From the IMG/VR virus record IMGVR_UViG_3300017913_002196: 20,000 nt of DNA. One strand, written 5' to 3'. The stretch is from an uncultured virus (IMG/VR IMGVR_UViG_3300017913_002196). Its lineage: Duplodnaviria > Heunggongvirae > Uroviricota > Caudoviricetes. The notes under the pieces were generated by a model that ran no database searches, was not told the DNA's origin, and saw nothing but the letters and a program-made list of their open reading frames with translations. Made by a program: the position numbers and the translations under genes. Shown one piece after another: positions 699 to 18,159 of this stretch; positions within the stretch are counted from its first letter, which is position 1, and each line of letters opens with the position of its first letter.

Positions 699-1134
699 AA
701 CCTGTTGTAAAGTCTTGTGCTATATTTCCGATATAATTTGTACCATCATAAACAATAGTTACTGCATCAATTGCATTTGCATCAGTGCTTAATGTTGGAT
801 CACCACCAGGGAATTTAACATTGTTTGAACCGTCTGTAAAAGTGCCTGTTCTTGAACCAGTAGCGTCTTGAGTAATAATAATTGTCACAGAAGAACCTGT
901 ATCAAAACCACTCATTGTAAAAGTTGCGTTTGTGTCTAAAGTAACAGATTGAATTGATCCGTCTTTCGGATCAATTGTAATTGATGAAGCAGAAGTCTTA
1001 GCTTGTACTTTTTCTTTAATACCACCTCTGAAATCAACTACTTTATCAAACTGTGATGCGTTAGCAACAGCTGGGTTAGCTAAATATGCTGCAAATTTTC
1101 TTGCTCTTGAAGTCCATGCGGTTCTAATTGCCAT
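697..1134 (-). CDS. Small beta-rich virion/fibre-type protein (145 aa)
   Basis: Thr/Ser/Gly-rich beta pattern (ITQDATGSRT...VKFPGG.PTLST.ANAID...YDGTNY) resembling C-terminal domains of aquatic phage fibre proteins. SD-like GGGAG and an AATAAATA motif upstream. Confidence 0.65.
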   Translation of the reverse strand: MAIRTAWTSRARKFAAYLANPAVANASQFDKVVDFRGGIKEKVQAKTSASSITIDPKDGSIQSVTLDTNATFTMSGFDTGSSVTIIITQDATGSRTGTFTDGSNNVKFPGGDPTLSTDANAIDAVTIVYDGTNYIGNIAQDFTTG

Positions 1135-1159
1135 GAGTGTTACTCCCTAATTTCTACTT

Positions 1160-1167
1160 TATTTATT
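1160..1167 (-). promoter_or_regulatory. T4-type late promoter motif AATAAATA
   Basis: tatttatt on + strand, 25 nt upstream of the ATG at 1134. Confidence 0.55.
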
Positions 1168-1243
1168 ATTTTTTAAAAATAGTCGTTACTTTTTCTTATA
1201 ATCTGAACAGATGCCTGAGCTGTTCTAAGCCCCGGATACCATA

Positions 1244-1867
1244 TTAACTTTTAGCTTTCTTTCTTCTACCTTTACGCATATTTAATAACCAATGAGCTAA
1301 CTGTTTCTTGCGAGGTGATGCAGATGAACTAGATCGTATCTTCTTAAGAGAAGAATCAGAACCTTTAGTATTAATTCCATGACGTTTACTATCACCTTTG
1401 TCTTGTGGGTTCTTTCCATCCATAAAATTTTCACCTACTTTATTTCTAAGAGCTCTTAACTGTTCTCTCTTTTTATTAAAAGCAGTTTGTCCACCAACCA
1501 TTTTTTTAGCTCTTATACCGGTAGAAGTCTTCTGTCTTTGAAAATCATTAGTTCTCATATTAGAAACACCTGTACCGGTACTACCAGTCATTATTGCTTC
1601 ACTAACATCATTCATCATATAATCTCTAGCAGTATCAATATAATCACAGGCTTTAGTAATCTTATTTTGTACCCATTCAGCCATGTTAGTGTTATCTTCT
1701 AACATGTTAATCAAATCATTTGCGTTTCGAATAATACCTCTTAATTGAGTCTTAGCCATCTCACCTTCATAGTCATATTCTCTTTCGTTAGATTCTTTTG
1801 ACTCAGATCTAAGTTTAATATATTCTCTTCTTTGAGCTATTTTTTTATCTCTCATATTACTTGGCAT
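1244..1867 (-). CDS. Hypothetical modular protein, candidate internal head protein (207 aa)
   Basis: Helical module YDYEGEMAKTQL...EWVQNKITKA.DY followed by very basic modules ending AHWLLNMRKGRRK. Modules are separated by VSEA and VGEN, which resemble gp21 cleavage sites. SD-like GAAGGG upstream. Confidence 0.7.
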   Translation of the reverse strand: MPSNMRDKKIAQRREYIKLRSESKESNEREYDYEGEMAKTQLRGIIRNANDLINMLEDNTNMAEWVQNKITKACDYIDTARDYMMNDVSEAIMTGSTGTGVSNMRTNDFQRQKTSTGIRAKKMVGGQTAFNKKREQLRALRNKVGENFMDGKNPQDKGDSKRHGINTKGSDSSLKKIRSSSSASPRKKQLAHWLLNMRKGRRKKAKS

Positions 1868-1881
1868 AGCGACCCTTCTTT

Positions 1882-1931
1882 ATTATACTTATTATAAATT
1901 TACGAAATTATACTTATTATAAATTTACGAA
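1882..1931. repeat. Perfect 2 x 25-bp tandem repeat in the intergenic region
   Basis: attatacttattataaatttacgaa at 1882-1906 and again at 1907-1931. Confidence 0.95.
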
Positions 1932-1952
1932 GCTTATTCTTAATAGCTTTAT

Positions 1953-2294
1953 TTACCATTGTTTACAGCTCCAGTAACGAGCCTTTGTTTTAGGTCCAGG
2001 GTTATCACAGTTATGCCTAGCTCTAAAAGACTTTCTACGAGCTGGATTGTCAGCTTTAATTTCCATATTAGGATCACCAAAGTTAACTTTAACTACATTA
2101 CCTTTTTCGTTCTTTACATACACTGAACGCTTTTTAGGTCCACCCGGAGTCAAAAATGGCTTGTTTAATTTTACATTTTTCTTTTTGCCACCATCTTCCT
2201 CATCAATGTATAAGGCATCTTCTTCAACTTCACCCCATTCATTAATTTGTGTCTTTACATTTTCGAATACATTATCACCGGTTAAGATGCTCAT
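1953..2294 (-). CDS. Small basic hypothetical phage protein (113 aa), candidate internal head protein
   Basis: Short acidic leader, then a basic domain (KVNFGDPNM...RRKSFRARHNC...ARYWSCKQW) that I recognise from T4-like aquatic phages. SD GGAG upstream. Confidence 0.8.
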   Translation of the reverse strand: MSILTGDNVFENVKTQINEWGEVEEDALYIDEEDGGKKKNVKLNKPFLTPGGPKKRSVYVKNEKGNVVKVNFGDPNMEIKADNPARRKSFRARHNCDNPGPKTKARYWSCKQW

Positions 2295-2303
2295 AGTTTA
2301 CTC

Positions 2304-2885
2304 CTATAGTAAGTTATTATTAAGTCTACCATTTGTGTAGGTTTGATTTTCAAAGTATAAGTATCTAAATGATGCTGTACTTTTTACATATGTTATATCT
2401 TGATCAGCAGCATTGTATGTTGGTCCATCTAAACTAATAGGAAAACAATCAACAAAATTCCAATGTACTAAAGGTTTGTTACCAGCATCACAACCAAATA
2501 CAGTTATGTTAGAGGTAGTGTTTCTCCACCCTGTACTTCCAGTAGTATTAGTTGTATTAGTAAACTCATTATACTGTTCATGTTGTTCGGGATGATTAAT
2601 AGCTTTTAACCATTCAAGTACCGTTCTATAATTAGTGAAGTCTTTATCCACTAAGAACTCAAAATCTAAAGATGAATAATCAACTCCATTACCAGGTAGA
2701 AAAGCTCTAACAGGGTTAAGTCTATTAGATAAAGGTACTTCACCTCCAGTTACGTTTGGTATGTTTACTGATTGTATATTAAAAACTAGAGAAGGTAATG
2801 TCTCTGCAACAGCATAGAAATTTTGAGGAGCTACATATGAGAGCTCTGGTATTCTAGATGATACTGTACTATATGATACTGCCAT
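2304..2885 (-). CDS. gp3: Tail completion / tail-tube terminator protein (T4 gp3-like)
   Basis: Tube-fold motifs (QSVNIP, YSSLDFEFLVDKDFTNY..VLEWL, FVDCFPISL, ASFRY). Lies directly after gp23, as in T4-like cyanophages. Confidence 0.75.
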   Translation of the reverse strand: MAVSYSTVSSRIPELSYVAPQNFYAVAETLPSLVFNIQSVNIPNVTGGEVPLSNRLNPVRAFLPGNGVDYSSLDFEFLVDKDFTNYRTVLEWLKAINHPEQHEQYNEFTNTTNTTGSTGWRNTTSNITVFGCDAGNKPLVHWNFVDCFPISLDGPTYNAADQDITYVKSTASFRYLYFENQTYTNGRLNNNLL

Positions 2886-4508: not shown

Positions 4509-6488
4509 TTAATTATTCACAGTCTTTGAAAGGAACTTCGCATACTGCGATACAGTACTGTCATCTTCTTCGATAACTGTACCACCGAATACTTCCTCAC
4601 TCAATGAGCTAAGAAGTGGTTGCTCAGATGATTCGTTGAAATAGCCCTCTTTAAGCTGCTCTACTTTATATCTGAACTCTTCGATGTCATCTGCTTCAAC
4701 ATTTTCAGACAAGTTTTCTAAGCGGATCTTTTGTGTCTGAGTTAAGTCGTTGCTGACTTCATCTACGATTTCTTTTCTTTTGATTTCCAAAAGTTCTCTC
4801 TTAGCTGACTCAAGCTCACCTGCTTGCTCATCTAACTGCTCTTTATATGATTCAACTGCTTCAGTTAACTCATCAACAACAGATACTTCTTCTTCTGGAA
4901 TATCAATAAAGTTAGATTCAAATACTGTCTTCATTTCGCGAATAAAGTTTTCAGCAATTTCAGTTCTTAATGAGTATTTGATCTCTAACTGATTTTCTTC
5001 TAACCATTCATTAACTACATAGTCAACATACTGGTCAACTTTTTCGTTAATCTTTTTAACTTCTTCTTCTAATTCATCAGCGTATTTAGCTTCAATTTCT
5101 TCAGCTAACTTATTAGCCTTTTCATTGACTGCTGTTTCAAAGATAACAGAAGCTTTTTCTTTAAAGTCTTCATCAAGATCTTCCATTAACTCATCCGCAT
5201 CTTCCTTAACAGGGCCTTTTGGATTAGCTTTAGTTGGAGTATCAATAGGATCTTTAGCTTGATCATGAGCACCTTCACCAGGATTACCACCTTTAGAAGT
5301 AGGCTCATTTTTACCTTTCTCTTCTTTAGGACGTTTGTCTTCATTTTCAGCAGAAGATGGTGCAGCTTCTAACTTTTCACCAGTTGCTTCTTCTACTTCT
5401 TCTTCTGACTCTTCTTTAGCCATAGCTTTCTTAATAGCTTTGTCTTTATTGTCCATATACTCTTTATCATCTGGCTCATCTACACCATCACCATCCATGT
5501 CACCTTTATCTTTTGCTTCAGTGACTTCTTGATAATGAGCTTCGATTTCTGCTTGCTCTTCTTCAGTCAAGTTAGAATAGAAATCATGGAACTCTTCTTC
5601 TGTAAGACCTTCGATCTTATCCCAGTCCCATTCCATTTCTTCTTCTACAGATTCTTTAGCTTCTTCTTCATCATCGTCGTCATCGTCATCATCTTTTTCG
5701 TGATCATCTTTAGAAGCCTCTTCTACTGACTCATCAGTTTCTTCTTTATCATCGTCTTCATCATCGTCATCAGAATCATCTTCTTCTTTCATGTTCTTCA
5801 TTGACTCTTTTTCATCGTCTGGAATATGATCATCATTAGCATTCTTTTTTACAGTTGTGTCTTGTGCTTCTTCGATCTCGTCTTCTTCCACTACAACAGA
5901 ATCATAACGCTCTTTAAACTCAGCTAACTCTTCTTCTGTTAACGAATCAACTAACTCCTGGAAATCATCTTCAGAAAGGTTATCAATCTTATCCCAATCC
6001 CATTCCATTGTTTCTGCATCTTCGTCCATAGCTTGATTATGAGGACCTTTGTTAGCTTCAACTTCAGCTGAAGCGTCAGAAGGTAATGCATTCTTACCAT
6101 CTTTCTTAGGACCTACATCTTTATCACCACCACCATCGATAGCAGCACCTTTTTCTGAACCTAAAACTTCTTTAGAATTATCTGATGCGCTAGAAGCAAT
6201 CTTACCTTTGTTCATATCACCGACGTCTTTATCACCGCCTGCGTCAATAGCAGCACCTTTTTCAGAACCAATAACCTCAGATGAATTATCACCTTCTTGA
6301 TCTGACTTAGGCTTAGCTGTATCAGTAAGTTTATTAGCTGCAAGAGACTTATCAGTCTTGTCCTGCGCTTCGTCTACCTGATCTTCTTCACTCATTTTGT
6401 TTTGAGGGTTTCTAACTTTTTTAGGTGCAGTCATATCCGCTTCTAAAAGCTCCTCAATAACATCAATTAAACCGTTATTCTTTTCCAT
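4509..6488 (-). CDS. gp22: Prohead core scaffold protein (T4 gp22 family) with a long acidic N-terminal extension
   Basis: C-terminal ~230 aa match gp22 (FKEKASVIFETAV, VDQYVDYVVNEWLEEN, LRTEIAENFI, FESNFIDIPEE, LTQTQKIRL, LKEGYF). Lies between gp21 and gp23. Start moved from the TTG at 6503 to the ATG at 6488, which follows a GGAG SD. Confidence 0.93.
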   Translation of the reverse strand: MEKNNGLIDVIEELLEADMTAPKKVRNPQNKMSEEDQVDEAQDKTDKSLAANKLTDTAKPKSDQEGDNSSEVIGSEKGAAIDAGGDKDVGDMNKGKIASSASDNSKEVLGSEKGAAIDGGGDKDVGPKKDGKNALPSDASAEVEANKGPHNQAMDEDAETMEWDWDKIDNLSEDDFQELVDSLTEEELAEFKERYDSVVVEEDEIEEAQDTTVKKNANDDHIPDDEKESMKNMKEEDDSDDDDEDDDKEETDESVEEASKDDHEKDDDDDDDDEEEAKESVEEEMEWDWDKIEGLTEEEFHDFYSNLTEEEQAEIEAHYQEVTEAKDKGDMDGDGVDEPDDKEYMDNKDKAIKKAMAKEESEEEVEEATGEKLEAAPSSAENEDKRPKEEKGKNEPTSKGGNPGEGAHDQAKDPIDTPTKANPKGPVKEDADELMEDLDEDFKEKASVIFETAVNEKANKLAEEIEAKYADELEEEVKKINEKVDQYVDYVVNEWLEENQLEIKYSLRTEIAENFIREMKTVFESNFIDIPEEEVSVVDELTEAVESYKEQLDEQAGELESAKRELLEIKRKEIVDEVSNDLTQTQKIRLENLSENVEADDIEEFRYKVEQLKEGYFNESSEQPLLSSLSEEVFGGTVIEEDDSTVSQYAKFLSKTVNN

Positions 6489-6509
6489 TGTATTAAACTC
6501 CAATTAATT

Positions 6510-6517: not shown

Positions 6518-7183
6518 TTAAAGCGTCTTTAAGAAGCTCTCAAATACTTCTAACTTAACTTCATTAAGTTCTTTTAATTTAGCTCTCTTTAATTTCTCTC
6601 TCTGAAATTCTAAATCTACTTGTTTCCAAATTCCAGATTCGTAAATCCATTCAGCTTGTTCCATTACACCTTCAACAAAAGATGATTGTGCAGATGGATC
6701 AAACACAACATCAGCGGCAGTAGTAAGTACAAAATCATTACCTACTAAATTATAACCTTCTCTTTGAGGAATAAGACTACCTAAACCTCTAGAAGATACA
6801 CCAATCTTTACACCATCAGATAAAAGATTCTCTACTATCTTACCCATTGGTGTTGATAAAACCTTAGCTTTACCCATATAGTAAACAGCGTCGTCAGCCC
6901 TTTCTTTAGTCAACTTAGTTGTCATAATAGCTGCGCGCTCAGGATTTACAATAGGTTCAGCTGGATGGTTCAATTCCCCCAAAGCTCTTTTTTGTGAAAT
7001 ATAATCTTCGTTATACTTTTCAACTGCAGCATCCATAACTTCTTCTGTATAGATTCTGCCATTTTTATTTTTCTTTTCAGCTTGAAGAAAAGGACCATTA
7101 ATATACATTCTTTTCTCTGAACCTTTACCTTCAGAGATGACATCTAGATCATTAAAAGTGATATCTTCTTTAATAAGTTTCAT
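6518..7183 (-). CDS. gp21: Prohead core protease (T4 gp21 family)
   Basis: GPFLQAE.KN.NGRIY, RALGELNHP (catalytic His), TPMGKIV, GVSSRGLGSL (catalytic Ser), ADVVFDPSA..SFVEG. Confidence 0.98.
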   Translation of the reverse strand: MKLIKEDITFNDLDVISEGKGSEKRMYINGPFLQAEKKNKNGRIYTEEVMDAAVEKYNEDYISQKRALGELNHPAEPIVNPERAAIMTTKLTKERADDAVYYMGKAKVLSTPMGKIVENLLSDGVKIGVSSRGLGSLIPQREGYNLVGNDFVLTTAADVVFDPSAQSSFVEGVMEQAEWIYESGIWKQVDLEFQREKLKRAKLKELNEVKLEVFESFLKTL

Positions 7184-7185
7184 AA

Positions 7186-7506
7186 TTATGTCCTAAACTC
7201 AATAACAACATTACCCTGTGATGCGGTTGTAAAAGTAATTGCACACGCAGCAGGTGCAGCTAAATTAATACCACCGTGTAATGATAATTCCCATCTGCCG
7301 GTTTCAAAATCTTTACCGTCAATTGTTACAGCAGACTGTCCCATGTTAGTAACTGATTCAATCTTTCTTACTCGTACATAGTTACCATTTACAGTAAAGT
7401 CATCTGAATCTAATGTATGATCTGCATCATAGACATGATAGACAATTCTGTTACCAGGTGTTGAACCATTTACTTGTACCGCTTTTGCTACAATTTCTGC
7501 TGCCAT
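7186..7506 (-). CDS. Hypothetical small beta-rich protein in the head module (106 aa)
   Basis: Clean ORF tightly packed between the gp68-like gene and gp21, with SD-like AAGGG and an alternating hydrophobic beta pattern. Confidence 0.75.
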   Translation of the reverse strand: MAAEIVAKAVQVNGSTPGNRIVYHVYDADHTLDSDDFTVNGNYVRVRKIESVTNMGQSAVTIDGKDFETGRWELSLHGGINLAAPAACAITFTTASQGNVVIEFRT

Positions 7507-7517
7507 TTTCTATACCC

Positions 7518-8231
7518 TTAATTTAATGTATTAGCAATTGATCTAGATCTACCTTTAACTCTACGTTTGGTAATCTTTGTCTTAATTGCTGCTTTCTTCT
7601 TTGCACCTTTACCCATTGCTTTTTTAGCTCTCTTGAGCTTAATACCAACGCGGCGCATCTTTGCTTTTTGTGTTCCAGTTTGAGGTAAACATCTATTGCC
7701 TGCTAATCTCATTCCTGGACCGCAGATCTTTTTCTTTTTAATCTCACCCTTAGCTCTTTTAAAGATAACTTTTGCTCTTTGAGCTTTACCTTTATACTTC
7801 TTACCACCTGGAGGATTTTTTTCTGCTTCTTCTAATTCTTCTTCTGTATCTTCAATGATTTCCATTTCATAGTCTTCAGCAAACAACATCTCTTTAAGTG
7901 CTAACATACTGTTTACTGAAGGATCTACTTCATTAAGATCAAACTCAAATACTAAGTCCATTACTGAACCGTCTTGATTAGGAGCAAAGTCAAACACTTC
8001 TTGAACTTCATAATGGTTTTCAATAAGTTCGATATCTAAATCCAACTCACCATCGAACTCAACAGTTTCTTCAAACTGTTCAATTTCAACTTCTTGTCTC
8101 ATCTCATCTAATTCACTCTCAGTAAATAAGAAATGAGTGTTATGAGAAACTCCGTTGAGCATCTGTTTCTTTAACTCTTCTCTAAAAGTCTGAGTCTGAT
8201 ATTTTTTCCATTCAAGAAGATTCATTTTCAT
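7518..8231 (-). CDS. Prohead core protein (gp68-like)
   Basis: Acidic N-half, an LEEA putative gp21 site, then a highly Lys/Arg-rich C-terminus with C-x-P-G...R-C. Position between portal and protease matches gp68. The start could be 8234, 8231 or 8225. Confidence 0.7.
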   Translation of the reverse strand: MKMNLLEWKKYQTQTFREELKKQMLNGVSHNTHFLFTESELDEMRQEVEIEQFEETVEFDGELDLDIELIENHYEVQEVFDFAPNQDGSVMDLVFEFDLNEVDPSVNSMLALKEMLFAEDYEMEIIEDTEEELEEAEKNPPGGKKYKGKAQRAKVIFKRAKGEIKKKKICGPGMRLAGNRCLPQTGTQKAKMRRVGIKLKRAKKAMGKGAKKKAAIKTKITKRRVKGRSRSIANTLN

Positions 8232-8376
8232 CACTCTTTAAATAATCTTTGGCCATTTCTTTTTTGATTCCATCTAATCTAGTTAACACTCTAGTTGTGA
8301 TTTCATCTTTAAATGACTTGGTAAAATCCTTCTCTGACTCTTCATTTGAGTTTAAATAATCATAAAAGTCTATCAT
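8212..8376 (-). CDS. 54-aa small prohead core protein (gp67-like), not in the supplied ORF track
   Basis: Manual translation: MIDFYDYLNSNEESEKDFTKSFKDEITTRVLTRLDGIKKEMAKDYLKSDENESS-stop (TGA). It fills the gap, is helical/amphipathic, is preceded by AATAAATA and overlaps the next gene's start. Confidence 0.8.
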   Translation of the reverse strand: MIDFYDYLNSNEESEKDFTKSFKDEITTRVLTRLDGIKKEMAKDYLKSDENESS

Positions 8377-8380
8377 AATT

Positions 8381-8388
8381 TATTTATT
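8381..8388 (-). promoter_or_regulatory. Late promoter motif AATAAATA
   Basis: Minus strand AATAAATA-AATT-ATG in front of the 54-aa ORF. Confidence 0.65.
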
Positions 8389-8393
8389 CCTTT

Positions 8394-9878
8394 TTAACCC
8401 CAGAGAATAGAGTCCATCTCAAGAGTTGAGTTCTTCAACTCCTCTTCAAGCTCTTGTTTCTCTGCATTCGCTTCATCCCAAAGTCCTTGACCATCGAGTT
8501 GTACACCACCAGGAAGTTCAGTATTTTGATATTTCTTTAAATTAGAACCCCACTGTTGCTTTGCTAACACCGTAGCATATCTTTTTAACCATGTGTTTTT
8601 ATAAACCTCACCTGTTAGTTCTGGATCTGCTTGTTCATATACTTCACATAAAAGATAAAAATCTCCTCTACTTTTACCTGTCTTAATTCTATTCCAATCT
8701 ACGTCTAAATATAATCTACTTCTATATTGATTAAATCTTATTGCAGGAGCTGTGTTTAATAAAAAGTCAATATGTTCTACATTTAACTTTTGTGTGTAGT
8801 AGTTTGATAAACCAGTACCTACAGCATTACCATAGAACATATCAAAGTTATTAAGGAAGTACTGATATTCAAAATTGTACATACCTGCATGAGTGAAAGA
8901 ATCTACTTTAGCAACCTTAGTAACAGATACAATACTATCTGGAACTTTAATACCAATCTGTCCTGTAGATGTAACTGTAATGTTTTCATCTTCTAATACT
9001 TTTAATTCTTCTTTAAAGTATTTGCTAAAGCCATTATGAGCTGTTCGTTTACCAAATCTTCTAGGTCTTGTAGATGTAGGGCTAAAACGTTGACTTCTTA
9101 GAACATCTCTTTGTGTATATCTAGTAGCTCTTTCTATAATTACCAATTTAAATCTTTGATCTGAATCTGTATCTAAATCACTATCAAACAATCTAAAAGT
9201 AGTACCATCGGAATCTTGTACGTATGCACCAACTTCGTCACTATCATATCTATTAGAGTAATCTAAATCTGAGTCAAGTAGTCTATAAGTAACACCGTCA
9301 GAGTCTAAAATATATGCTCCGCTATTATCAGAATCATATACTTGGTAATAATCTAAATCAGAATCAATAGCTCTAAATTCAGAACCATCAGAATCTAAAA
9401 TATGAGAACCGTATTGTTCAGAGTCATAAAATTTAGCTGTTTCAGAAATGTCTAAATCACTATCAAATACTCTTATATTACCATCTGAATCTCTTACAAA
9501 GGCACCATTAGTATCTGAATCATAAAAGATATTAGTTGACTCTGAATCAGTCTTAATAAAGATTCTATTTCCTCTAGTATTATCAACTTTAACCATAACT
9601 CTATCACCAATGCGATAGTCGTTTAGCTTATCTGAGTCAAATTTTTCTGCTGTAAGATCTTGGTGAATTCTATTATTACGGTTAAGTAAATTTGAATCTA
9701 CTTTAATTGTTCTCCAAGATCTAGTTACACCATCATAATGATAGTTGTAAAAAAATTGCACGGCTTCGTCAATACAATCTTCCAATTGTACATCAGCGAT
9801 TTCTACGTTAATGACTGGCGCGCCTAGTCTACGTAAAACCCAATCTGCTAACTCTTGTTTAGTCGCTGGTAATGGCAT
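8394..9878 (-). CDS. gp13: Neck protein (T4 gp13 family) with a large DSD-repeat insertion
   Basis: N-terminus P.TKQEL.DWVLRRLGAPVINVEI...QLEDCIDEAVQFF..YHYDG and C-terminus IRFNQ..RLYLD.DW...WLKRYAT.LAKQQWGSNLKKY...LPGGVQLDG are gp13 hallmarks. Confidence 0.95.
   Translation of the reverse strand: MPLPATKQELADWVLRRLGAPVINVEIADVQLEDCIDEAVQFFYNYHYDGVTRSWRTIKVDSNLLNRNNRIHQDLTAEKFDSDKLNDYRIGDRVMVKVDNTRGNRIFIKTDSESTNIFYDSDTNGAFVRDSDGNIRVFDSDLDISETAKFYDSEQYGSHILDSDGSEFRAIDSDLDYYQVYDSDNSGAYILDSDGVTYRLLDSDLDYSNRYDSDEVGAYVQDSDGTTFRLFDSDLDTDSDQRFKLVIIERATRYTQRDVLRSQRFSPTSTRPRRFGKRTAHNGFSKYFKEELKVLEDENITVTSTGQIGIKVPDSIVSVTKVAKVDSFTHAGMYNFEYQYFLNNFDMFYGNAVGTGLSNYYTQKLNVEHIDFLLNTAPAIRFNQYRSRLYLDVDWNRIKTGKSRGDFYLLCEVYEQADPELTGEVYKNTWLKRYATVLAKQQWGSNLKKYQNTELPGGVQLDGQGLWDEANAEKQELEEELKNSTLEMDSILWG
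9159..9527 (-). repeat. Four ~30-aa tandem protein repeats inside gp13
   Basis: FYDSDTNGAFVRDSDGNIRVFDSDLD / FYDSEQYGSHILDSDGSEFRAIDSDLD / VYDSDNSGAYILDSDGVTYRLLDSDLD / RYDSDEVGAYVQDSDGTTFRLFDSDLD. Confidence 0.92.
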
Positions 9879-11457
9879 CGTGCTCTACTATTTCCGTTTC
9901 AGTATTTATTGTAAGAACATCTTTCTCTCCTGATAGAGTAACATCTCTAACTTGTACACTTTCAAAACCAAAAGGTTCTGGTGGCATATCAGGATCTTTA
10001 ATTTGTTCTTTTTCCATCTCGTTCATAATCTCTGTATCAATACGTGCAATATCTTCTTCTGTATGACCAAGAATAACTTTGCGTACATATTCGATAGAGA
10101 AATATTTACCTACATATTCATTAGCATCTCTAAGTACTGCTAACTGATCGTTAAGTAATTCTACCTGCTTAAGTTTATCAAAGTGCATATCTTTGAGATA
10201 GTCATAACTGATATACTGTCTCATTTCTTCGAACTCAGCTTGAGTACAAACACCTTTAAGTACTAACTGAACTCTTAACACTTCGTTAAACAATTCAGCA
10301 AACTGTTTTCTAATACGTTTAATAAACTTACTAAATTTTATTTCATCTCTTGAGATGTCTGATGCTCTTCCGAGTTGAAAGTTGTTGTCTTGGTTGATTC
10401 TTGAGATTGGGACATTGAGCGATTGATATAATTTCTCCTTGAAGTAATTGACATCGTCAAGATCTCCAAGATTTTGTCCTCCAGGGAGTGTACTAATCTC
10501 CGTACCTCTTGACCCTTCTCTTCTAGGGAGCCAGAAGTCCTCCAACAACGACATAAATTTTCTCGAATCACGAATCTCTCCTGTATTTGGATTGTAGTCA
10601 ATTTTATTTCTATAACGATTCATCATATCTCTAAGATAAGTCTCAGCTTTAATCTTAGGTAATGAACCCACATCAACATAAAAAATTCTTCTTTCAGGTG
10701 CTCTAGCAATACGATAAACAATAAGAGCATCTTCCATAGAACGAAGATTGTTAAAAGGTTTAATTGCTTTGTCTAAGTAACCAACAATACTACCTTTATT
10801 TCTATCTACCAATCCTGATGGACAAAAGATAACAGAGTCTTTGGATAACTTTACACCATTATTACCACCATCAGGAGAATATTCAAAGTACTCATCTACT
10901 TTAACTAATACAGGAACACCTGTTCTAGGGTCTTTATCATATTTAGGTTTAACATGTCTTTTAATCTTAAGAGCGTCGATAGGTCTTAATTCTTTAATAC
11001 CATTCTTAAGATTTTCTTGATCTACAATAACTTGGTAGTGTAGTCTACTATCTACATACCATTGTCTAAAGATGTCATATGAACGTCTTTGAAACTTAAG
11101 AAGATGAAGAGTTGTCTTAAACTCTTCTCTAATTATTTCTTTAATTCTATCATCAATGTTAAGAAGATCTAATCTAATAGATACTGAAGGTCTTTCATGT
11201 TCTGTAGTGAAAGCTTCGTTTACAATATCATCAATAGCAGCATCAGCTTCTGGATAGAAAGAAATGTCTCTATACTGAGCAATTAATGCATGTTCGCTTC
11301 TTGCTTTACTATATTGTTCGTAAGTATAACCAATCCTACCACCAACAGGTAAGTCAGTACCATCATCCATTGGTTTAGGAACGGGTGATGGTACTGGTTG
11401 ATCATTCTTGTTTTGAACTAATTCGAACCCGAATAGTTCTTCTTTCTGTAAAGCCAT
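9859..11457 (-). CDS. gp20: Portal vertex protein (T4 gp20 family)
   Basis: LFGF N-terminus, PEADAAIDDIVNEA, YLDKAIKPFNNLRSMEDALIVYRIARAPERRIFYVDVG.LPK.KAE.YL, LEDFWLPRREG.RGTEISTLPGGQNLG, I.RDE.KF.KF. SD GAGGAG. Confidence 0.99.
   Translation of the reverse strand: MALQKEELFGFELVQNKNDQPVPSPVPKPMDDGTDLPVGGRIGYTYEQYSKARSEHALIAQYRDISFYPEADAAIDDIVNEAFTTEHERPSVSIRLDLLNIDDRIKEIIREEFKTTLHLLKFQRRSYDIFRQWYVDSRLHYQVIVDQENLKNGIKELRPIDALKIKRHVKPKYDKDPRTGVPVLVKVDEYFEYSPDGGNNGVKLSKDSVIFCPSGLVDRNKGSIVGYLDKAIKPFNNLRSMEDALIVYRIARAPERRIFYVDVGSLPKIKAETYLRDMMNRYRNKIDYNPNTGEIRDSRKFMSLLEDFWLPRREGSRGTEISTLPGGQNLGDLDDVNYFKEKLYQSLNVPISRINQDNNFQLGRASDISRDEIKFSKFIKRIRKQFAELFNEVLRVQLVLKGVCTQAEFEEMRQYISYDYLKDMHFDKLKQVELLNDQLAVLRDANEYVGKYFSIEYVRKVILGHTEEDIARIDTEIMNEMEKEQIKDPDMPPEPFGFESVQVRDVTLSGEKDVLTINTETEIVEHDAITSD
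9903..9910 (-). promoter_or_regulatory. Possible late promoter AATAAATA for gp13, embedded in the portal 3' end
   Basis: tatttatt at 9903-9910, 24 nt upstream of the gp13 ATG. Could arise by chance in AT-rich DNA. Confidence 0.45.
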
Positions 11458-11484
11458 AAGGACTCCTCATTATAAAATGAAGAG

Positions 11485-12111
11485 TTAGCCAGTTACTGGC
11501 TGTTCAGCGACATCAGCTGTAGTTCTAGCTGAAGTAGGAACTGAAGTTGTATTTGATTCCCACCACTGATATGCAAAAGTAACTGCAAACTCTTCGATTG
11601 TATCTGCACTGTCGTAAGAAACATCAATTGTATCTACAACAGTAGGCCACGCACCTACAATAACATATCTCTTAATCACTGCACCTGTTCTACTTAGTTG
11701 TTCAATTTCTAAGTTAGCAACATATGAGTCAAATGAAGCGGCATCAACACCTCTTCCAGATACGTTTGTAGCTGCGCCGTTAATCGCATCTTGCCATCTT
11801 TCGAAAGCATTTCTTACAGCAAAGTTATTGTCATTAACTACACTTACTGTCCAAGCATCGTAAACAGTATCACCTGATACTTTTAATTGTCTACCTCTAA
11901 ATGGTACAATAATTTCACCAATAGATCTAGCTGGCATTGCTGCAGTTTTAATCATAAAAGAGCTCAATGCTTCTGTCTCACCGGAACCGAAAGCTGTATT
12001 AGCTAGACCTTCAATGTTCCCGTTTGGCCAGTTACAGTTTACTCTAAATAGATTGGCTCTTGCACCGCCGCCAGTTAAAGCTGTTTTAAAATCGTCAATA
12101 CGTACTGTCAT
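11485..12111 (-). CDS. gp19: Tail tube protein (T4 gp19 family)
   Basis: GGGARANLFRV, VPFRGRQLKVSGD..YDAWTVSVVND.NF.VRNAFERW, IEEF.VTFAYQWWE. Confidence 0.97.
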   Translation of the reverse strand: MTVRIDDFKTALTGGGARANLFRVNCNWPNGNIEGLANTAFGSGETEALSSFMIKTAAMPARSIGEIIVPFRGRQLKVSGDTVYDAWTVSVVNDNNFAVRNAFERWQDAINGAATNVSGRGVDAASFDSYVANLEIEQLSRTGAVIKRYVIVGAWPTVVDTIDVSYDSADTIEEFAVTFAYQWWESNTTSVPTSARTTADVAEQPVTG

Positions 12112-12112
12112 C

Positions 12113-14218
12113 TTAAGCTCCTGCTACCTCACTAAATGATACTCCAGTTCTCACAGCAACAAAGTTCAGTGTAATGAAGTTAATTGAGCGAGCTGGCTTC
12201 AGGTAGATATCAGCTACGAATTGATTAGAGTCGATAACCTGACCTGTGTTATTAGATGTATCACAAACAACCTTAAAGTCAGTTAAACCTCTTCTTGCTT
12301 GTACTTCAGCAAGAAATGGCTCAATAGCATTAACGAATGTTCTTCTTGTCAAGTCATCGTTAAACTCGAACAATTGGAACTTAGCAGCTGTTGCAATTGC
12401 TTTTTCAAGAACAATGAACAATCTACGTACGTTAATTCTATCAAACGCAGAAGGCCTAGACAATGCTGTCTTATCACCGTATAACAGAGTACCCTGACCT
12501 CTAAAGGTTACGATAGGGTTAATTCTGTTAGGATAGAGCTGATCTCTATCTGTTTGATTTGGATTGAATGATAATTTAACAACGTTCTGGATAAACCCTC
12601 TGTTTAAACCAGCAGGTGAATACCAAGCTTCGTTAGTAAATTCTGTTCTTGCTGTTAAACCTGCTGTATCAGGGTTAATTGGCATCCAGAAATACTCGTC
12701 GTTATATCTATCATACTGTCTCTTCCAGCTTGAATCGAATACAGCATATGAAGTAGAGTTAATGTCTGAGAAATAGTCAATAACTTTAGTTGCTGTTGGA
12801 TTGTTTACAGCTGCAGAATAGCTAGGTGATAAGAACGCTATAGCATCTTTCCTTTTCTCTGCAATTGTTATAACATGTTTTTGTACTGTTTTCGATCTTT
12901 CACCAGTAATAAGTAGATTTACATCAATAACCTGATCATCGTTTAATAGGTCATAAGCAGTTGTATAGTTACCATCAGTAATAGATGAACCATCATTACC
13001 ACCACCTAATGTATATCTTCTTAAACCAGTTAAGCTTACATTTGTTAACAAATACTTAAATCTATTTGATGTAGCTAAGTTTGTTAATGTATCACCAATT
13101 GAACTTAAAGCAGTACCACCTGAACCATCAGAGTCAATAGTAGATGATTGTGCTTTGGTTTCTTCATTAAGAAGATAAACCCAATTAGAAGCATCATTAA
13201 CTGCATCTACATAGAAGTTACCTGCACCGTCTGCTGTTTTACTATTTTTAGCTTTAGATAAGTATGCATATGTTTCTAATGTTTCATTTGCTGTACCGGT
13301 AATCTTTGTATCTGTAGTATAGATAACAACATGAACTTCATCGAATAATGTGTTCGTGTAATTACCCGCCCATGTTGATGTACCTGGTCTTGTATCGAAC
13401 AAATCAGCGCCTGTAGTGTTACCATATAGCTTATAATTCTTAAAGTCAGAATCGTTTATAGAAGCATCCATGATATAGATACCAATACTATTTCCTAACT
13501 CACCAGGGAATCTAGCATATACTGAACCGTTAACAAGTGTTGATTTTTCTACTTCAAAGTCATCAAAGTTATTAATTTGAGCTGAAGTAATTCTAGTTGT
13601 TGTACTTGCACTTGTATTTGAGAAGAATGTAAATGTTACGCCGTTTACTGTCTGTGCAGCTGGTAAGGTAATACCTGTTGCAGAATATTTTAATGTGGGG
13701 TCTACAATACCTGCAATACCATCTGAGTCAGCAGTAACTGATGAGAAACCATCACTATCCATTGCTTCTCTCATTGCATCAAGTACTGAATCTAATGTTA
13801 ATGCATCAGCACTAAATGAAACTTCTGTTGTTCCGTCTACCTTTACATCAAATCCTGATGCAGAAGGTGTACCTGATAATACAACTGAAATTGTTGAAGA
13901 AGAACCAACAACCGGCTCTGATGCACTATTTCTTGCACCATCAGAGATTGCTCTAACTACTTGTAATTGATTTGCATAACCAAGGAAGTTAGCTGCTGCG
14001 TACCAATCATCTCTTGTACTTGAGGCCGCGTTTGTTGAAACTTTTGGGTATCCAAATTTAGCGAGAAGATCTTTCTCTGAAGATACCGTTGTTACTTCTA
14101 ACGCTGGACCCCATTCGAAAATACCAGCAAAGCCACCAATAGACGTTGCTACTGCTGGAATAATGTTGGTAAGATCTTTCTCTACGATTTGTACACCTGG
14201 ACTAACTAAAAATGCCAT
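12113..14218 (-). CDS. gp18: Tail sheath protein (T4 gp18 family)
   Basis: SPGVQIVEKDLT, AGIFEWGP, ARFPGELGNSI, WYSPAGLNRG, RDQLY...INPI, LYGDKTAL..PSAFDRINVRRLF, FEFND..TR, YLKPARSINFITLNFVAVRTGVSF.E. SD CAGGAG. Confidence 0.99.
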   Translation of the reverse strand: MAFLVSPGVQIVEKDLTNIIPAVATSIGGFAGIFEWGPALEVTTVSSEKDLLAKFGYPKVSTNAASSTRDDWYAAANFLGYANQLQVVRAISDGARNSASEPVVGSSSTISVVLSGTPSASGFDVKVDGTTEVSFSADALTLDSVLDAMREAMDSDGFSSVTADSDGIAGIVDPTLKYSATGITLPAAQTVNGVTFTFFSNTSASTTTRITSAQINNFDDFEVEKSTLVNGSVYARFPGELGNSIGIYIMDASINDSDFKNYKLYGNTTGADLFDTRPGTSTWAGNYTNTLFDEVHVVIYTTDTKITGTANETLETYAYLSKAKNSKTADGAGNFYVDAVNDASNWVYLLNEETKAQSSTIDSDGSGGTALSSIGDTLTNLATSNRFKYLLTNVSLTGLRRYTLGGGNDGSSITDGNYTTAYDLLNDDQVIDVNLLITGERSKTVQKHVITIAEKRKDAIAFLSPSYSAAVNNPTATKVIDYFSDINSTSYAVFDSSWKRQYDRYNDEYFWMPINPDTAGLTARTEFTNEAWYSPAGLNRGFIQNVVKLSFNPNQTDRDQLYPNRINPIVTFRGQGTLLYGDKTALSRPSAFDRINVRRLFIVLEKAIATAAKFQLFEFNDDLTRRTFVNAIEPFLAEVQARRGLTDFKVVCDTSNNTGQVIDSNQFVADIYLKPARSINFITLNFVAVRTGVSFSEVAGA

Positions 14219-14258: not shown

Positions 14259-15581
14259 CTAAACCCTTCTGATGATGAAGCTACCAGCATCAAAGGTCTC
14301 TATAACTTCCGCATTAAATGTCATATCTGTAAAGTCATCTTTAAATCTAAAATGTATTGAATCATCAGATGCTAATCCTGAATCTAAATCAATATACATC
14401 TTATCAATATATTGCATTGCAAGTGAGTTGCTGTTTACTGAATATATAATAAATCTTATTACGTTTTCAAATGCTGTGCCTTCAGCAACAACAAACTCTT
14501 GACTTACAATTTCTCCGCCACCTAAACCACTAATAGCCCACTTAAATGTAGTTTCTTCTGATAAAGTAGCACCTGTCTGTACATAATCTACTGCAATAAT
14601 ATCTGAATCAGATGTAACAACTGCAGCAGGAGCGTTAATAGTATTTGATGAACCTACTCCTAATAATTTTTCTAGTGCTGCAATTCTTGTTAAATGTGAA
14701 TCAGTTTCTTTTGTAATTGAAGTGTGTAGTGAATCACTATCTAAGTCAGATCCACCTATTCTGTTTAGATTAATAGTTCTAACAATTCTATCTGAATCAA
14801 AGTGATCTGAATCTTCTAGTCTAGTTAATCTAGTTCTAATAATTGTAATTCTGTCTCTTGTATAACCTTCTTCTGAATCAAAGTCATCTTCAACTACATT
14901 TAATCTTCCGCTAATATGTTGTAGTTTCTCTTCATCAGAATCTAGTCTTCTGTAAATATCTGTTAAATCAAGATTTTCAGAATCAATATCAGATCTCAAA
15001 GCTCTAACTTCTAATGATTCTGAATCCATATCAGATCTAAGTTTTGCTATATCTTCTTCGTTCTGAGTAACTTTTTCTAATAATCTTCCATCACTATCTA
15101 AAGTAGATACAATATTTCTAATTCTTTCTGCATCTGAATCTGCATTACGTTTAAGATGCTCAATAGCAATCATATCACTATCAAGACGTCTAATAATATC
15201 TAACAATTCTGTCTGATCAGAATCAAGTAAGGTTTGTAATTCGTCTATTCTCTTTTGTAAATGTTGAATGACAGTAGAGTCGGAATCTCTATCTGACATT
15301 AATTGATCTACATCATTTCTAAGAGTTGAAACTACTGCTAAATCAGAATCAGTAAAGAGACTATTCTCTCTAACCATACTTCTAATTTGATCAGAATCAA
15401 ATCCTGAACCTCCACTTCCAGCAGAATGTTCATTAATAAGATCAACAATGTAATCCGAGTCTATATTGACTCGAAATACACCTTCGTAATCACTATTCTC
15501 ATTATAATCAACAATGATTCCAGGGCCGGCTTCGACCCTGACCATCATGGGATAAAAATCTGAATCAAAATTGTAAGCCAT
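14259..15581 (-). CDS. DSD-repeat coiled-coil protein (440 aa), candidate whisker/fibritin-like virion fibre
   Basis: Central heptad pattern punctuated by DSD/DSE, with a globular-looking C-terminus. Preceded by TATAAATA and located in the structural module. The fibre role is inferred. Confidence 0.7.
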   Translation of the reverse strand: MAYNFDSDFYPMMVRVEAGPGIIVDYNENSDYEGVFRVNIDSDYIVDLINEHSAGSGGSGFDSDQIRSMVRENSLFTDSDLAVVSTLRNDVDQLMSDRDSDSTVIQHLQKRIDELQTLLDSDQTELLDIIRRLDSDMIAIEHLKRNADSDAERIRNIVSTLDSDGRLLEKVTQNEEDIAKLRSDMDSESLEVRALRSDIDSENLDLTDIYRRLDSDEEKLQHISGRLNVVEDDFDSEEGYTRDRITIIRTRLTRLEDSDHFDSDRIVRTINLNRIGGSDLDSDSLHTSITKETDSHLTRIAALEKLLGVGSSNTINAPAAVVTSDSDIIAVDYVQTGATLSEETTFKWAISGLGGGEIVSQEFVVAEGTAFENVIRFIIYSVNSNSLAMQYIDKMYIDLDSGLASDDSIHFRFKDDFTDMTFNAEVIETFDAGSFIIRRV

Positions 15582-15621: not shown

Positions 15622-18159
15622 CTAGAGTTCATACTCTGCAGTTGGTGGTGTAAAGTTAGCAGTGTATCTTGCAAGACCTCTAGTAAATCTTAAATCTTGT
15701 ATGTATCCATGGAATTGATTGTTAGATAAATTATATCCGTTAGCACCTATGACAGGCGCGGCAACTCCATGATTATAACCATTTGTATCTGAATACGTAC
15801 CATCACTTACACCATCAGTATACAAAGTTGTTGTTCCATTATTTCTAACTAATGCAATATGATACCAAGTATCTACAGATAAGACACTACCGGTAATTCT
15901 ATTAGCTTGCTGAGCATATAATTTTATTCCAGCGCTAGAGTCATGAGTAATAGTTATATATGCACCGTTAGTGTTTCTAGGTCTAGTATCAAATATTGTC
16001 ATACTATGATCAACTGCATTTAAGCGCATCCAAAATTCTATAGTAAAGTCATCTATTCCTCCTACACCAACTATACCTTTATTGTTATTAGTATTAGTTT
16101 CATTTTCCCCAATAATATAATCACCATTTCCATCAAAATAAATTGCAGAAGACGTTGTAAATTTTCTTTCTGTAGTTGAAGCTATAACATTACCAACAGT
16201 TCTAAAAGTGATACTACCGGTAGCATCATAGATATTAGTATCACTTTTATTGTTCATAATAAAAACAGTATTAGTATCAAAAGTAACAGGTTCTGTAGGA
16301 ACATCAATATAATCTCCTACTGTGTAAAGAGCTGTACCTTTAGTAATCTTTACATCAGCTATATAACCGTCAACATAGTTATTAACACCTCTATTAACTC
16401 CTATTTGTATATTGTCATCTGTAGAATAGTTTACTGTATCTGCAATATCACTTACCGCTCTAATACCATTGACCCACATTTGTGACACTGATGATTTTCT
16501 CTGTACTACAACATGATGCCATGCATCTCTTACGCCTAGTCCAGTAGTAGAATCTTGATTTCCTGTCCCTCTAGCATATCTAAATTTATCACTAGAGTAA
16601 TAAATTTGCCACGTATTTCCTGATGAACCTGCATCAGTGGAGCTTATAAAAGGATCGTTGGCAGCACTAGGATTTGTTTCTGGTCTCCACCATAATTCAA
16701 CAGTAAAGTCTCCAGTACCAAAATTGCCTATACCTGTGCCTGCAGCTGTTTTTACATAGTCTCCGTCACCATCCATGTATAAAGAACCACCGTTAGTGCC
16801 CGGTATCCAAGGTTCATAATTATATGGCCCAAACGGGTATGTATTAGGAAAACTATTATTTGCTAGGGCAATTCTATTTGTTGATTTATCAATGTGACAT
16901 GGTGCACCACATCCTAAAAATTGAGTATTAGTTATTGCTGTTAATGGTTCTGTTGGAGGGGTAAATGCACCAGTATATACAGCTGAGCCTATGACTACTC
17001 TTAAATCTCGTATGTAGCCTGTGTAGTATGCACCGTTACCTCCACCATTTCTAAAACCATAACCAATTCTCAATCTCGGGTTAGCATCAGTATAACCACC
17101 ACTAATAGCGAGACTTGATTGCTCGACCCCATCTACATATGATTTTAATGTACCTCCATTTCTTACAATGGCAATGTGATACCATGTTCTATTACTTACG
17201 GATGATACTAAAGTTTCCGCTGATTCTAAATTCCAAGTTGAATTATCTGATGATGAATAGAAAGTAAGGTTACCGCTAGCAACGTAAATTAGTAACGGAC
17301 CTCTTAATACATCAGATGGAGCAAGTTCCAGTACAGTGCTTGTATTATACCAGTTTGTAGAGTATACCCAACACTCAACTGTCCAATCATCGCTTCCAAA
17401 CTTTAAGTTAGCATTATTATCTGTTTCTAATCTATCATCTGTACCATCAAACCATGTACTATAACCACCTGAACGATATGGTGATAAGGATGAAGATTGC
17501 GTTGAGCCGGCTCTTGTAAATAGTATCCCATCTGAATTTTCAGAATCTAGATAGACTAGGTCACCGTTGGCTATATTATTACCTGTAGCTCTCATTAACA
17601 TAGTAGTGTAAGCAGAATTATCTATTATATTACTAAATGATAATGTGAATGATGAAACCGCATCTGTTTGATTAACACCATCTGAAGCTCTAAATGTAAC
17701 ACTACCCGTATTGGATGCTGATGGCACTCCGTTTTCACTGTCAGGTGTTACAGTAAAAATTCTACCATTATCAGAATCTTTTGTTATTGTTGCAAAAGTG
17801 TCAAAATCACTATCTGTAATAGCGGTGAATGTTATTGGCAATCCTTCAGAATCAACTGCATTAATAGTAATAGTTGTAGCAGTACCATCATTATTAAGTT
17901 CATATGAACCTGCAGGTGAAGTTGTGTAATAAGGTGAAGTGTTAATAAGAGCAATATTATACCAACCAGAACCTGACCATAGGTATAATCTATTAGTTGC
18001 TGTTACGTAGCCTTGGTCTCCTTGGGTGTTACCGCTTACAGGTAGATCATCTGTACTTGACACCACAATCATTTCTGTTAGATCAGCAGTCACGTAATTT
18101 TTATTGATTGTATTATTATCGTTAATACTTCTAGATAAAGCTCTGGATTTACTTGTCAT
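15622..18159 (-). CDS. Multi-LamG (concanavalin A-like) fibre / putative receptor-binding protein (845 aa)
   Basis: Three modules of the form (F/M)DG.GDY...FT(V/I)E.W...W(Y/H)HIA.VR.....YVDG...GYI.DLR...YT..FTPPT. N-terminal DLP.SGN..GD...V....LY.W.G.GW motif followed by an Ig-like segment. Confidence 0.88.
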   Translation of the reverse strand: MTSKSRALSRSINDNNTINKNYVTADLTEMIVVSSTDDLPVSGNTQGDQGYVTATNRLYLWSGSGWYNIALINTSPYYTTSPAGSYELNNDGTATTITINAVDSEGLPITFTAITDSDFDTFATITKDSDNGRIFTVTPDSENGVPSASNTGSVTFRASDGVNQTDAVSSFTLSFSNIIDNSAYTTMLMRATGNNIANGDLVYLDSENSDGILFTRAGSTQSSSLSPYRSGGYSTWFDGTDDRLETDNNANLKFGSDDWTVECWVYSTNWYNTSTVLELAPSDVLRGPLLIYVASGNLTFYSSSDNSTWNLESAETLVSSVSNRTWYHIAIVRNGGTLKSYVDGVEQSSLAISGGYTDANPRLRIGYGFRNGGGNGAYYTGYIRDLRVVIGSAVYTGAFTPPTEPLTAITNTQFLGCGAPCHIDKSTNRIALANNSFPNTYPFGPYNYEPWIPGTNGGSLYMDGDGDYVKTAAGTGIGNFGTGDFTVELWWRPETNPSAANDPFISSTDAGSSGNTWQIYYSSDKFRYARGTGNQDSTTGLGVRDAWHHVVVQRKSSVSQMWVNGIRAVSDIADTVNYSTDDNIQIGVNRGVNNYVDGYIADVKITKGTALYTVGDYIDVPTEPVTFDTNTVFIMNNKSDTNIYDATGSITFRTVGNVIASTTERKFTTSSAIYFDGNGDYIIGENETNTNNNKGIVGVGGIDDFTIEFWMRLNAVDHSMTIFDTRPRNTNGAYITITHDSSAGIKLYAQQANRITGSVLSVDTWYHIALVRNNGTTTLYTDGVSDGTYSDTNGYNHGVAAPVIGANGYNLSNNQFHGYIQDLRFTRGLARYTANFTPPTAEYEL

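Follow-up and report, generated by a model that had tools for sequence, protein, structure and literature searches.

In bacteriophage T4, the neck protein gp13 has been described from structures in two studies of the neck (PMC12929587, PMC12929629). In these descriptions, domain I is a four-helix bundle made of residues 3-51 and 239-300, domain III (residues 190-239) binds fibritin and is described as special to T4, and the protein also has a C-terminal arm, which binds the portal; residues 266-279 form the loop that binds the adaptor gp14 (PMC12929587). The neck adaptor is usually viewed as a conserved, purely architectural ring. Here, a gp13 homolog is described from a 20,000-nucleotide (nt) stretch of DNA of an uncultured virus (IMG/VR record IMGVR_UViG_3300017913_002196, referred to below as the window), in which a module of short Asp-Ser-Asp (DSD) repeats has been inserted. 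In the family to which it belongs, few proteins of the structural module vary in length as much as gp13, and the marine T4-like phages that carry it probably wear a collar of variable size under the head.

A gp13 homolog with a repeat insertion

The open reading frame (ORF) in question encodes 494 amino acids (aa), and its assignment to gp13, made in a first-pass annotation from the letters of the sequence, was borne out. The product matched phrog_211, 'head-tail adaptor Ad2', in PHROG (E 1.6e-35) and the solved T4 gp13 chains 9mkb and 9lu4 in the PDB (E about 1e-24; 1.1e-24), and a profile of the short members of the family aligned to T4 gp13 with a probability of 99.8 in hhalign. PF26809 (Phage_T4_gp13) was carried by 26 of 26 and 17 of 17 relatives in precomputed annotation. 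In the PDB alignment, residues 4-60 corresponded to T4 6-62, residues 347-387 to T4 127-168, and residues 409-481 to T4 226-297. The 'ELPGGVQLDGQ' of the window protein, which is invariant or nearly so within the family, aligned with 'MLPGGVTIDGQ' of T4. By homology, then, the ORF encodes a true gp13, and by its likeness to T4 twelve copies would form a ring on the portal clip.

Known gp13 proteins have nothing like the middle of this one: the 2,176 GenBank phage records that matched the window protein always did so in two pieces, together 43-57% of the query, and none of the 2,176 reached a coverage of 80%. The first-pass annotation had placed an insertion between conserved N- and C-terminal gp13 blocks, at positions 8980-9690 (residues 63-300), and this was confirmed. 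The length that it gave, more than 200 aa, depends on the reference chosen in the alignment of homologs: compared to T4 gp13 (309 aa), where residues 61-346 face T4 63-126, there are about 220 extra residues, whereas compared to the nearest short relatives (330 aa, core 82-87% identical) the insertion covers residues ~114-283, or about 165 aa. The variable part begins directly after a conserved 'IK.DS(E/D)' motif, near T4 residue 85-95, where the alignment is locally weak. Its start lies past the beta-hairpin that follows the T4-equivalent segment 6-77, and its end lies before the stretch aligned to T4 127-168. By this alignment, the insertion is in the T4 'swing' domain II, ahead of the anchor helices. 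Of the fibritin-binding domain III, which does not define the family, only a much shortened counterpart is present: in hhalign, much of the T4 stretch containing it (190-239) faces gaps.

Residues 118-240 are made up of four units of about 30 aa, each built of three 10-aa sub-repeats on D-S-D/E, as had been read from the sequence at the outset. The sub-repeats have the form phi-D-S-D-x-x-x-phi-x-phi and fall into three types, YDSDxxGAY(I/V), xDSDGxx(F/Y)R, and (L/F)DSDLDxxx, each of which is kept from unit to unit. The first Asp and the Ser were present in 12 of 12 sub-repeats, and the third residue was Asp in 11 of 12 and Glu in one. The whole protein contained 15 DS[DE] tripeptides (DS followed by D or E) compared to a mean of 0.67 in shuffles of its own composition, and 15 was reached in none of 1,000 shuffles. 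The DSD array had a net charge of -26 over 127 aa, 18 aromatic residues (14%), and no Pro; the aromatic residues, the lack of Pro, and the kept sub-repeat types suggest that it is folded rather than disordered. The Arg-rich stretch quoted in the first-pass annotation was also present, and it belonged to a periodic array of R-F/Y motifs at residues 242, 253, 264, and 274 (QRF, TRY, QRF, and RRF), spaced 10-11 aa apart, with a net charge of +10 over 45 aa.

Tandem Repeats Finder reported a 90-nt period at 9259-9428 (1.9 copies, 77% matches), and nucleotide identity among units 2-4 was only 58-66%. Judged by this divergence, the repeat units are old at the DNA level. The Ser codons of the DSD tripeptides were mixed (six TCA, five TCT, three AGT, and one TCC). 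This codon mixture, together with the low DNA identity, indicates that the Ser has been held by selection at the protein level and not by recent slippage.

Variation in length and unit number

Relatives were collected by word-indexed searches, which yielded 26 and 17 proteins of 329-970 aa, and by scans of IMG/VR and of metagenomes, which yielded 17 and 16 loci. A locus search of IMG/VR with one four-unit relative (P0024) returned no loci, and one with P0014 returned only short, distant gp13 genes. The gp13 relatives from seawater metagenomes ranged from 325 to 970 aa and had zero, one, four, or many units. Proteins with no unit (P0016 and L013) were 330-333 aa long, with a core 82-87% identical to that of the window protein. 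Those with one unit (P0002 and L003) were 371-373 aa long and had a single (T/Q)RFTQ motif. Those with four units and four RF motifs were 494-499 aa long: the window protein, P0001 (90% identical to it), P0024, and P0044. The longest proteins, of up to 970 aa and up to 37 DS[DE], had two or three DSD arrays, with a separate R-F/Y array behind each of them, and sometimes an extra non-repeat segment. Four of the long relatives (P0026, L033, L036, and L037) share a non-repeat segment, 'F(E/T)(L/I)(R/K)GS...DSDGYG...F(A/I)ALDG.R...', after the last DSD array and ahead of the terminal R-F/Y array; it is absent from the window protein. Across clades the insertions were only 31-38% identical, and still the 10-aa register and the three sub-repeat types were kept.

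Length in this family varied from 330 to 494 aa among phages with 82-90% identical cores. This suggests that there is diversifying pressure on the periphery of the neck, as there is for receptor-binding and decoration proteins.

The numbers of acidic and basic motifs were compared in 45 of 50 full-length sequences, the other five having been dropped when the boundary pattern failed. In these 45 proteins, some of them close relatives and at least two of them duplicates, the DS[DE] and R-F/Y counts were correlated (Spearman 0.92, slope 0.34, intercept near zero), corresponding to about one basic motif per 30-aa unit. In addition, all 17 of the insertions of at least 100 aa ended in a basic array, with zero or one DS[DE] after it, and in the long proteins the order of DSD array and RF array was repeated two or three times. 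To keep both arrays in step, separate changes are needed in two places, which argues that the arrays work together. A covariation in the one-unit clade, in which loss of the first DSD accompanied loss of the Arg of the RF motif, was not counted, as it represents roughly a single evolutionary event and does not hold in one protein (P0011).

A proposed structure for the module

The reading favoured here, at not quite an even chance, is that the module folds, in a cation-dependent way, into a beta-rich projection whose chain leads outward and then returns, present twelve times per neck and forming a collar of adjustable size. A module of variable copy number has been inserted into the peripheral swing domain of the dodecameric gp13 of an uncultured marine T4-like myovirus. 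Each ~30-aa unit of the acidic array would consist of three short hydrophobic or aromatic strands with D-S-D turns between them, and the basic array of ~11-aa R-F/Y motifs would return the chain to the gp13 core. The acidic and basic arrays would fold together as the out-and-back projection, which would probably be stabilised by divalent cations (seawater Ca2+ or Mg2+) at the Asp pairs. Twelve such projections would make up a collar just below the head, at the portal vertex, with its size set by the number of units. By analogy with the T4 structure and through the alignment, the insertion would point outward, and a collar exposed in this way might have a role in adhesion, fibre handling, or sensing.

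Several observations weigh against this reading. AlphaFold2 gave the window protein a mean predicted local distance difference test (pLDDT) score of 41, and 22-30 in the insertion, from an alignment of 19 rows; for a one-unit relative (L003), with 49 rows, the mean was 58.9 and the insertion was below 50. The models in the ESM Atlas for the window protein and P0026 were poor as well (pLDDT 0.51 and 0.41). No Ca-binding family model matched the insertion in Pfam at E ≤ 10, the binding of metal by Asp pairs does not explain the invariant Ser, and exposure on the outside rests on a T4 alignment that is weak around the insertion point. The correlation of 0.92 was obtained with related, partly duplicate sequences, and features of the insertion grow with its length anyway. 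When it was calculated per module (n = 29), the relation between DSD and RF motifs was only moderate (Spearman 0.50, slope 0.13), and the RF arrays plateaued at 2-6 motifs while DSD counts reached 29. A one-to-one match in number is therefore clear only for small arrays (0:0, 1:1, and 4:4). The proposal of the first-pass annotation of pairing between the acidic repeats and an Arg-rich segment running back along them drew indirect support from the overall correlation and from the basic ends of the insertions, tempered by the comparison per module. Its other structural proposal, a collar of beta strands with DSD turns between them, is kept here as a conjecture, the predictions of the monomer being of low confidence.

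Orphan repeats with shallow alignments often receive low pLDDT scores even though they are folded. The structural neighbours of the ESM Atlas models were beta-propeller-like, with template modelling (TM) scores of 0.26-0.43, all below 0.5, and an all-beta meander of the insertion may be taken from them as a lead only. The very low confidence of every prediction would also be expected if the insertion were a polyanionic brush, intrinsically disordered and ending in a basic tail, that served as an electrostatic or entropic spacer around the neck, and the charge of -26 over 127 aa and the freely variable copy number would suit such a brush. However, a content of 14% aromatic residues without Pro, a strict 10-aa register that includes hydrophobic positions, and the persistence of three sub-repeat types across units and across clades at 31-38% insert identity are not what a brush would lead one to expect, and we consider it quite unlikely.

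Search for a known family

The repeat had not been recognized as a named family in the first-pass annotation, and, as judged from the searches made here, it is a member of none: it is missing from Pfam, the PDB, and cultured phages. In Pfam, 237-aa and 123-aa pieces of the insertion matched no family at E ≤ 10 except DUF5818 (E 0.19). The PDB matches of the window gp13 were confined to the gp13 core and none fell in the insertion. In tblastn searches of GenBank phages (50,697 records) with the low-complexity filter on, no match was found for the window insertion or for the 607-aa insertion of L032, a distant member of the clade. A repeat insertion in gp13 or a phage DSD motif was not described in the literature searched. 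As neither the two databases nor cultured phages contain it, the repeat is a candidate for a new fold or for a new cation-binding or modification module.

An exhaustive search with the insertion, taken as 176 aa, against 1.84 billion representatives returned five matches at E ≤ 1e-3, only one of which was a gp13 (P0014). The others were a cadherin protein (P0027), two repeat proteins (P0028 and P0030), and a 154-aa fragment (P0029). This last metagenomic protein contains eight 10-aa 'VWDSDSIG.E' repeats, with the period and the DSD core of the gp13 sub-repeat. The best match outside gp13 was the cadherin-repeat protein (PF00028, E 8e-168). In its alignment (BLASTP E 4e-5), 'FRAIDSD...YDSDNSGAYILDSDGVTYRLLDSDLDY' of the insertion faced 'FRAIDGDGQTVKYSL.GDTAGMFSIDSNGVLYRTRNADYE', across a cadherin stretch of the form 'A.D.D ... 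F.ID..G.l....DYE', whose motifs we take to be the Ca-binding motifs of cadherins.

Like cadherins and the RTX beta-roll, the insertion appears to place Asp-rich turns between short strands. Unlike them, it has a unit of 30 aa, where that of cadherin is about 100 aa, and no GGxGxD nonapeptide. The cadherin domain model (PF00028, over ~100 aa) was not matched by the insertion in Pfam at E ≤ 10, and nonapeptides of the RTX or HemolysinCabind type (GGxGxDxUx) were not found in it, the sub-repeat being 10 aa long and without a Pfam match. An invariant middle Ser is not known to be required by the cadherin or the RTX families. The likeness to the cadherin protein is thus, at the level of sequence, a resemblance in motif to Asp-rich strand-turn elements and not membership in the family. 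Resemblances to YD/RHS repeats and to the BNR Asp-box were considered and dropped, since the spacing of the conserved residues differs and there was no Pfam match.

The first-pass annotation had allowed that the insertion might be an intein or another element missing from the mature protein. Neither a Hint domain nor a splice-junction signature was found in the insertion in Pfam at E ≤ 10, the reading frame is open, whole units vary in number in frame among 45 relatives, and the DSD is under selection at the protein level. The same allele of the repeat region was present at ≥ 99% in seawater contigs of a second study, with no indels or joints inside 9024-9539, and it was also present in an IMG/VR record. 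Two joints, at 8552-8735 and 8615-8730, were seen in the conserved core, in one contig each at likeness 85, and these may come from relatives. RNA sequencing runs contained only 6-11% of the sampled words. Because near-identical pieces occur in the second seawater study, the repeat is not an assembly artefact of one sample. An intein, mobile element, or assembly artefact is extremely improbable on these data.

DSD in other proteins of the virion

Three further structural proteins of the window were enriched in DS[DE], namely a 440-aa ORF, the tail sheath, and an 845-aa lectin-like protein (Table 1), while the capsid, portal, tube, and protease contained none. The first-pass annotation had noted neither this enrichment nor the hypervariable number of units in the gp13 family. 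In the sheath, 'DSDG' occurred at residues 154, 164, and 362 and 'DSDF' at residue 256, all before residue 400. In the 845-aa protein, four DS[DE] were found 12-13 residues apart near the N-terminus, in 'VDSEGLPITFTAITDSD...'. The 440-aa ORF has the sequence of a segmented coiled coil, in which the DSD stand where helix-like segments begin, for the most part at intervals of 14 or 21 residues; the C-terminal ~110 aa are a non-repeat part. It matched no PHROG family at E ≤ 0.001, its coiled-coil matches in Pfam were all sub-threshold, and its pairwise BLASTP match to T4 fibritin was weak (E 0.002, 21% identity) and at the level of coiled-coil composition. It may encode a fibritin-like fibre of the neck or tail. 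Enrichment of the same kind was found in the distant clade member L032, where a 458-aa ORF (1125-2498, plus strand) directly upstream of a 927-aa gp13 had 21 DS[DE] compared to 0.95 expected. They form 'DS(D/E)W(V/I)' repeats, and the ORF matched no PHROG family. The 2.5 kilobases (kb) upstream of the L032 gp13 yielded no portal match, in contrast to the window clade.

Because DSD is a feature of several outer proteins that differ in their structural setting, a 'code' of modification or of cations is kept in play. In one form of this idea, DSD is a recognition tag whose middle Ser is modified by an enzyme of the phage or host (by phosphorylation, glycosylation, or the like), and the array in gp13 serves as a scaffold that holds out numerous such sites around the neck, which would be compatible with a folded collar. 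The same tripeptide is enriched in a coiled coil, the sheath, and the 845-aa protein, and in the ORF next to gp13 in L032, and is absent from the capsid, portal, tube, and protease; in the sub-repeats the Ser is present in 12 of 12 and is coded from both Ser codon families. However, no candidate transferase or kinase was found within the 20-kb window, and D-S-D also fits ordinary structural roles, such as the segment starts of the 440-aa coiled coil. The 'VDSEG..ITFT' of the 845-aa protein resembles a common D-x-D-G loop, which also counts against a tag. Overall, a tag for Ser modification is judged unlikely. A precedent for it is the reported glycosylation of staphylococcal Ser-Asp repeats by SdgA and SdgB (PMC3794999). 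Those adhesins resemble the insertion in having many Asp-flanked Ser on a surface protein, but they consist of long SD dipeptide runs, where the insertion has single DSD 10 aa apart in an aromatic-rich repeat.

The DSD-rich coiled coils also raise the question of whether the module serves to dock a neck fibre, as a platform that would replace T4 domain III and hold the 440-aa protein in the window and the 458-aa protein in L032. The T4 190-239 stretch, which binds fibritin in T4 (PMC12929629, PMC12929587), is largely gapped in the family; the 440-aa protein is a segmented coiled coil with a weak match to fibritin; and the DSD-rich ORF of L032 is the one immediately upstream of gp13, a place like that of wac relative to gene 13 in T4. 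Against this, the fibritin match is one of coiled-coil composition, and the 330-aa relatives without the insertion keep the same core and gene order, so the insertion is not required for any fibre that is shared with them. We regard a docking platform as very unlikely.

The collar reading can be extended to these other proteins, although in this wider form it becomes doubtful. The two-part repeat, made of triple-DSD units and R-F/Y return strands that are number-matched at least in small arrays, would grow adjustable collar projections from the adaptor, and D-S-D would be a virion-wide code common to the fibritin-like fibre, the sheath, and the lectin-like protein. Read by divalent cations or by a Ser-modifying enzyme, it would tie the outer neck and the tail surface into one regulated system. 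The modular acidic and basic design is easy to test in vitro, and the module is a concrete target for cryo-EM and viromics of abundant uncultured marine myoviruses.

Neighbouring genes of the window

The genes of the window make up a structural module of the T4 type on the minus strand (Table 1). In order, they encode two proteins rich in Laminin_G_3 domains, the 440-aa ORF, the sheath gp18, the tube gp19, the portal gp20, gp13, two small ORFs, the prohead protease, a 664-aa scaffold, and the major capsid protein. The order of tube, portal, gp13, 238-aa ORF, 106-aa ORF, and protease (6518-12111 in the window, minus strand) was kept in the clade loci L002-L017 and L041-L046. The two small ORFs, for which no informative family match was found in Pfam or PHROG, occupy the place of T4 genes 67 and 68 (prohead core). 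The scaffold has a long N-terminal extension and is rich in Asp (13%) and Glu (19%); the T4 scaffold family PF25623 matched only its residues 439-633, and T4 gene 22 is 810 nt long. A second gene for a tube-like protein lies just downstream of the major capsid gene, separate from the main tube gene.

Table 1. Positions of the gp13 gene, its parts, and other genes of the window named in the text
Feature	Position	Strand	Remarks
Second tube-like gene	2304-2885	-	193 aa; phrog_45, E 1.6e-23
Scaffold	4509-6503	-	664 aa
106-aa ORF	7186-7506	-	
238-aa ORF	7518-8234	-	Acidic N-terminal half, Lys/Arg-rich C-terminus
gp13 / head-tail adaptor Ad2 gene	8394-9878	-	494 aa; ORF listing, PHROG and PDB matches
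gp13 residues 286-494 and stop	8394-9023	-	Remaining conserved swing domain, much shortened counterpart of T4 domain III, C-terminal helices with LPGGVQLDGQ loop, C-terminal arm; PDB alignment, hhalign, family alignment
Basic R-F/Y array, residues 241-285	9024-9158	-	Motif analysis
Acidic DSD array, residues 114-240	9159-9539	-	Repeat analysis
Four ~30-aa units	9435-9527, 9342-9434, 9252-9341, 9159-9251	-	Three sub-repeats per unit
gp13 residues 61-113	9540-9698	-	Clade-specific piece of swing domain, conserved DS[DE] at 81 and 111, ends 'IK.DSE'; family alignments
Conserved N-terminal helices, residues 1-60	9699-9878	-	Part of T4 domain I (T4 6-62); PDB alignment and hhalign
Portal gp20 gene	9859-11457	-	PF07230, E 3.9e-160; 3' end shares 20 nt with gp13 start
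Main tube gene	11485-12111	-	
Sheath	12113-14218	-	4 DS[DE], shuffle mean 0.52; reached in 1 of 1,000 shuffles
440-aa ORF	14259-15581	-	17 DS[DE], shuffle mean 1.35; 0 of 1,000 shuffles
845-aa lectin-like protein	15622-18159	-	Large structural protein, three Laminin_G_3 (concanavalin-like lectin) stretches; 5 DS[DE], shuffle mean 0.57; 0 of 1,000 shuffles
Second Laminin_G_3 protein	18156-19898	-	Large structural protein, three Laminin_G_3 stretches

Comparison with the neck of T4

The closest described relative of the window protein is T4 gp13 (PF26809, PHROG 211; 9mkb and 9lu4). Their N-terminal helices align, as do their C-terminal helices, including the LPGGV.(L/I)DGQ loop, and the ends of the two proteins; both genes lie within a structural module of the T4 type, with sheath, tube, portal, protease, scaffold, and capsid. 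They differ in length, 309 aa compared to 494 aa, by virtue of a repeat module of ~170 aa in swing domain II, and much of the fibritin-binding domain III of T4 faces gaps in the window family. The gene order differs as well: gene 13 of T4 follows wac, seven genes before gene 20, whereas the gp13 gene of the window lies between the portal and the prohead genes.

The collar and whiskers of T4, formed by fibritin (gpWac) on domain III of gp13, resemble the proposed projections in that both would decorate the periphery of the neck on twelve copies of gp13, the insertion probably having a comparable location. The T4 decoration is a distinct protein, a trimeric coiled coil. In the window, the extra mass is within gp13 itself and is, by its sequence pattern, a repeat of beta type, and a possible fibritin-like protein is encoded separately.

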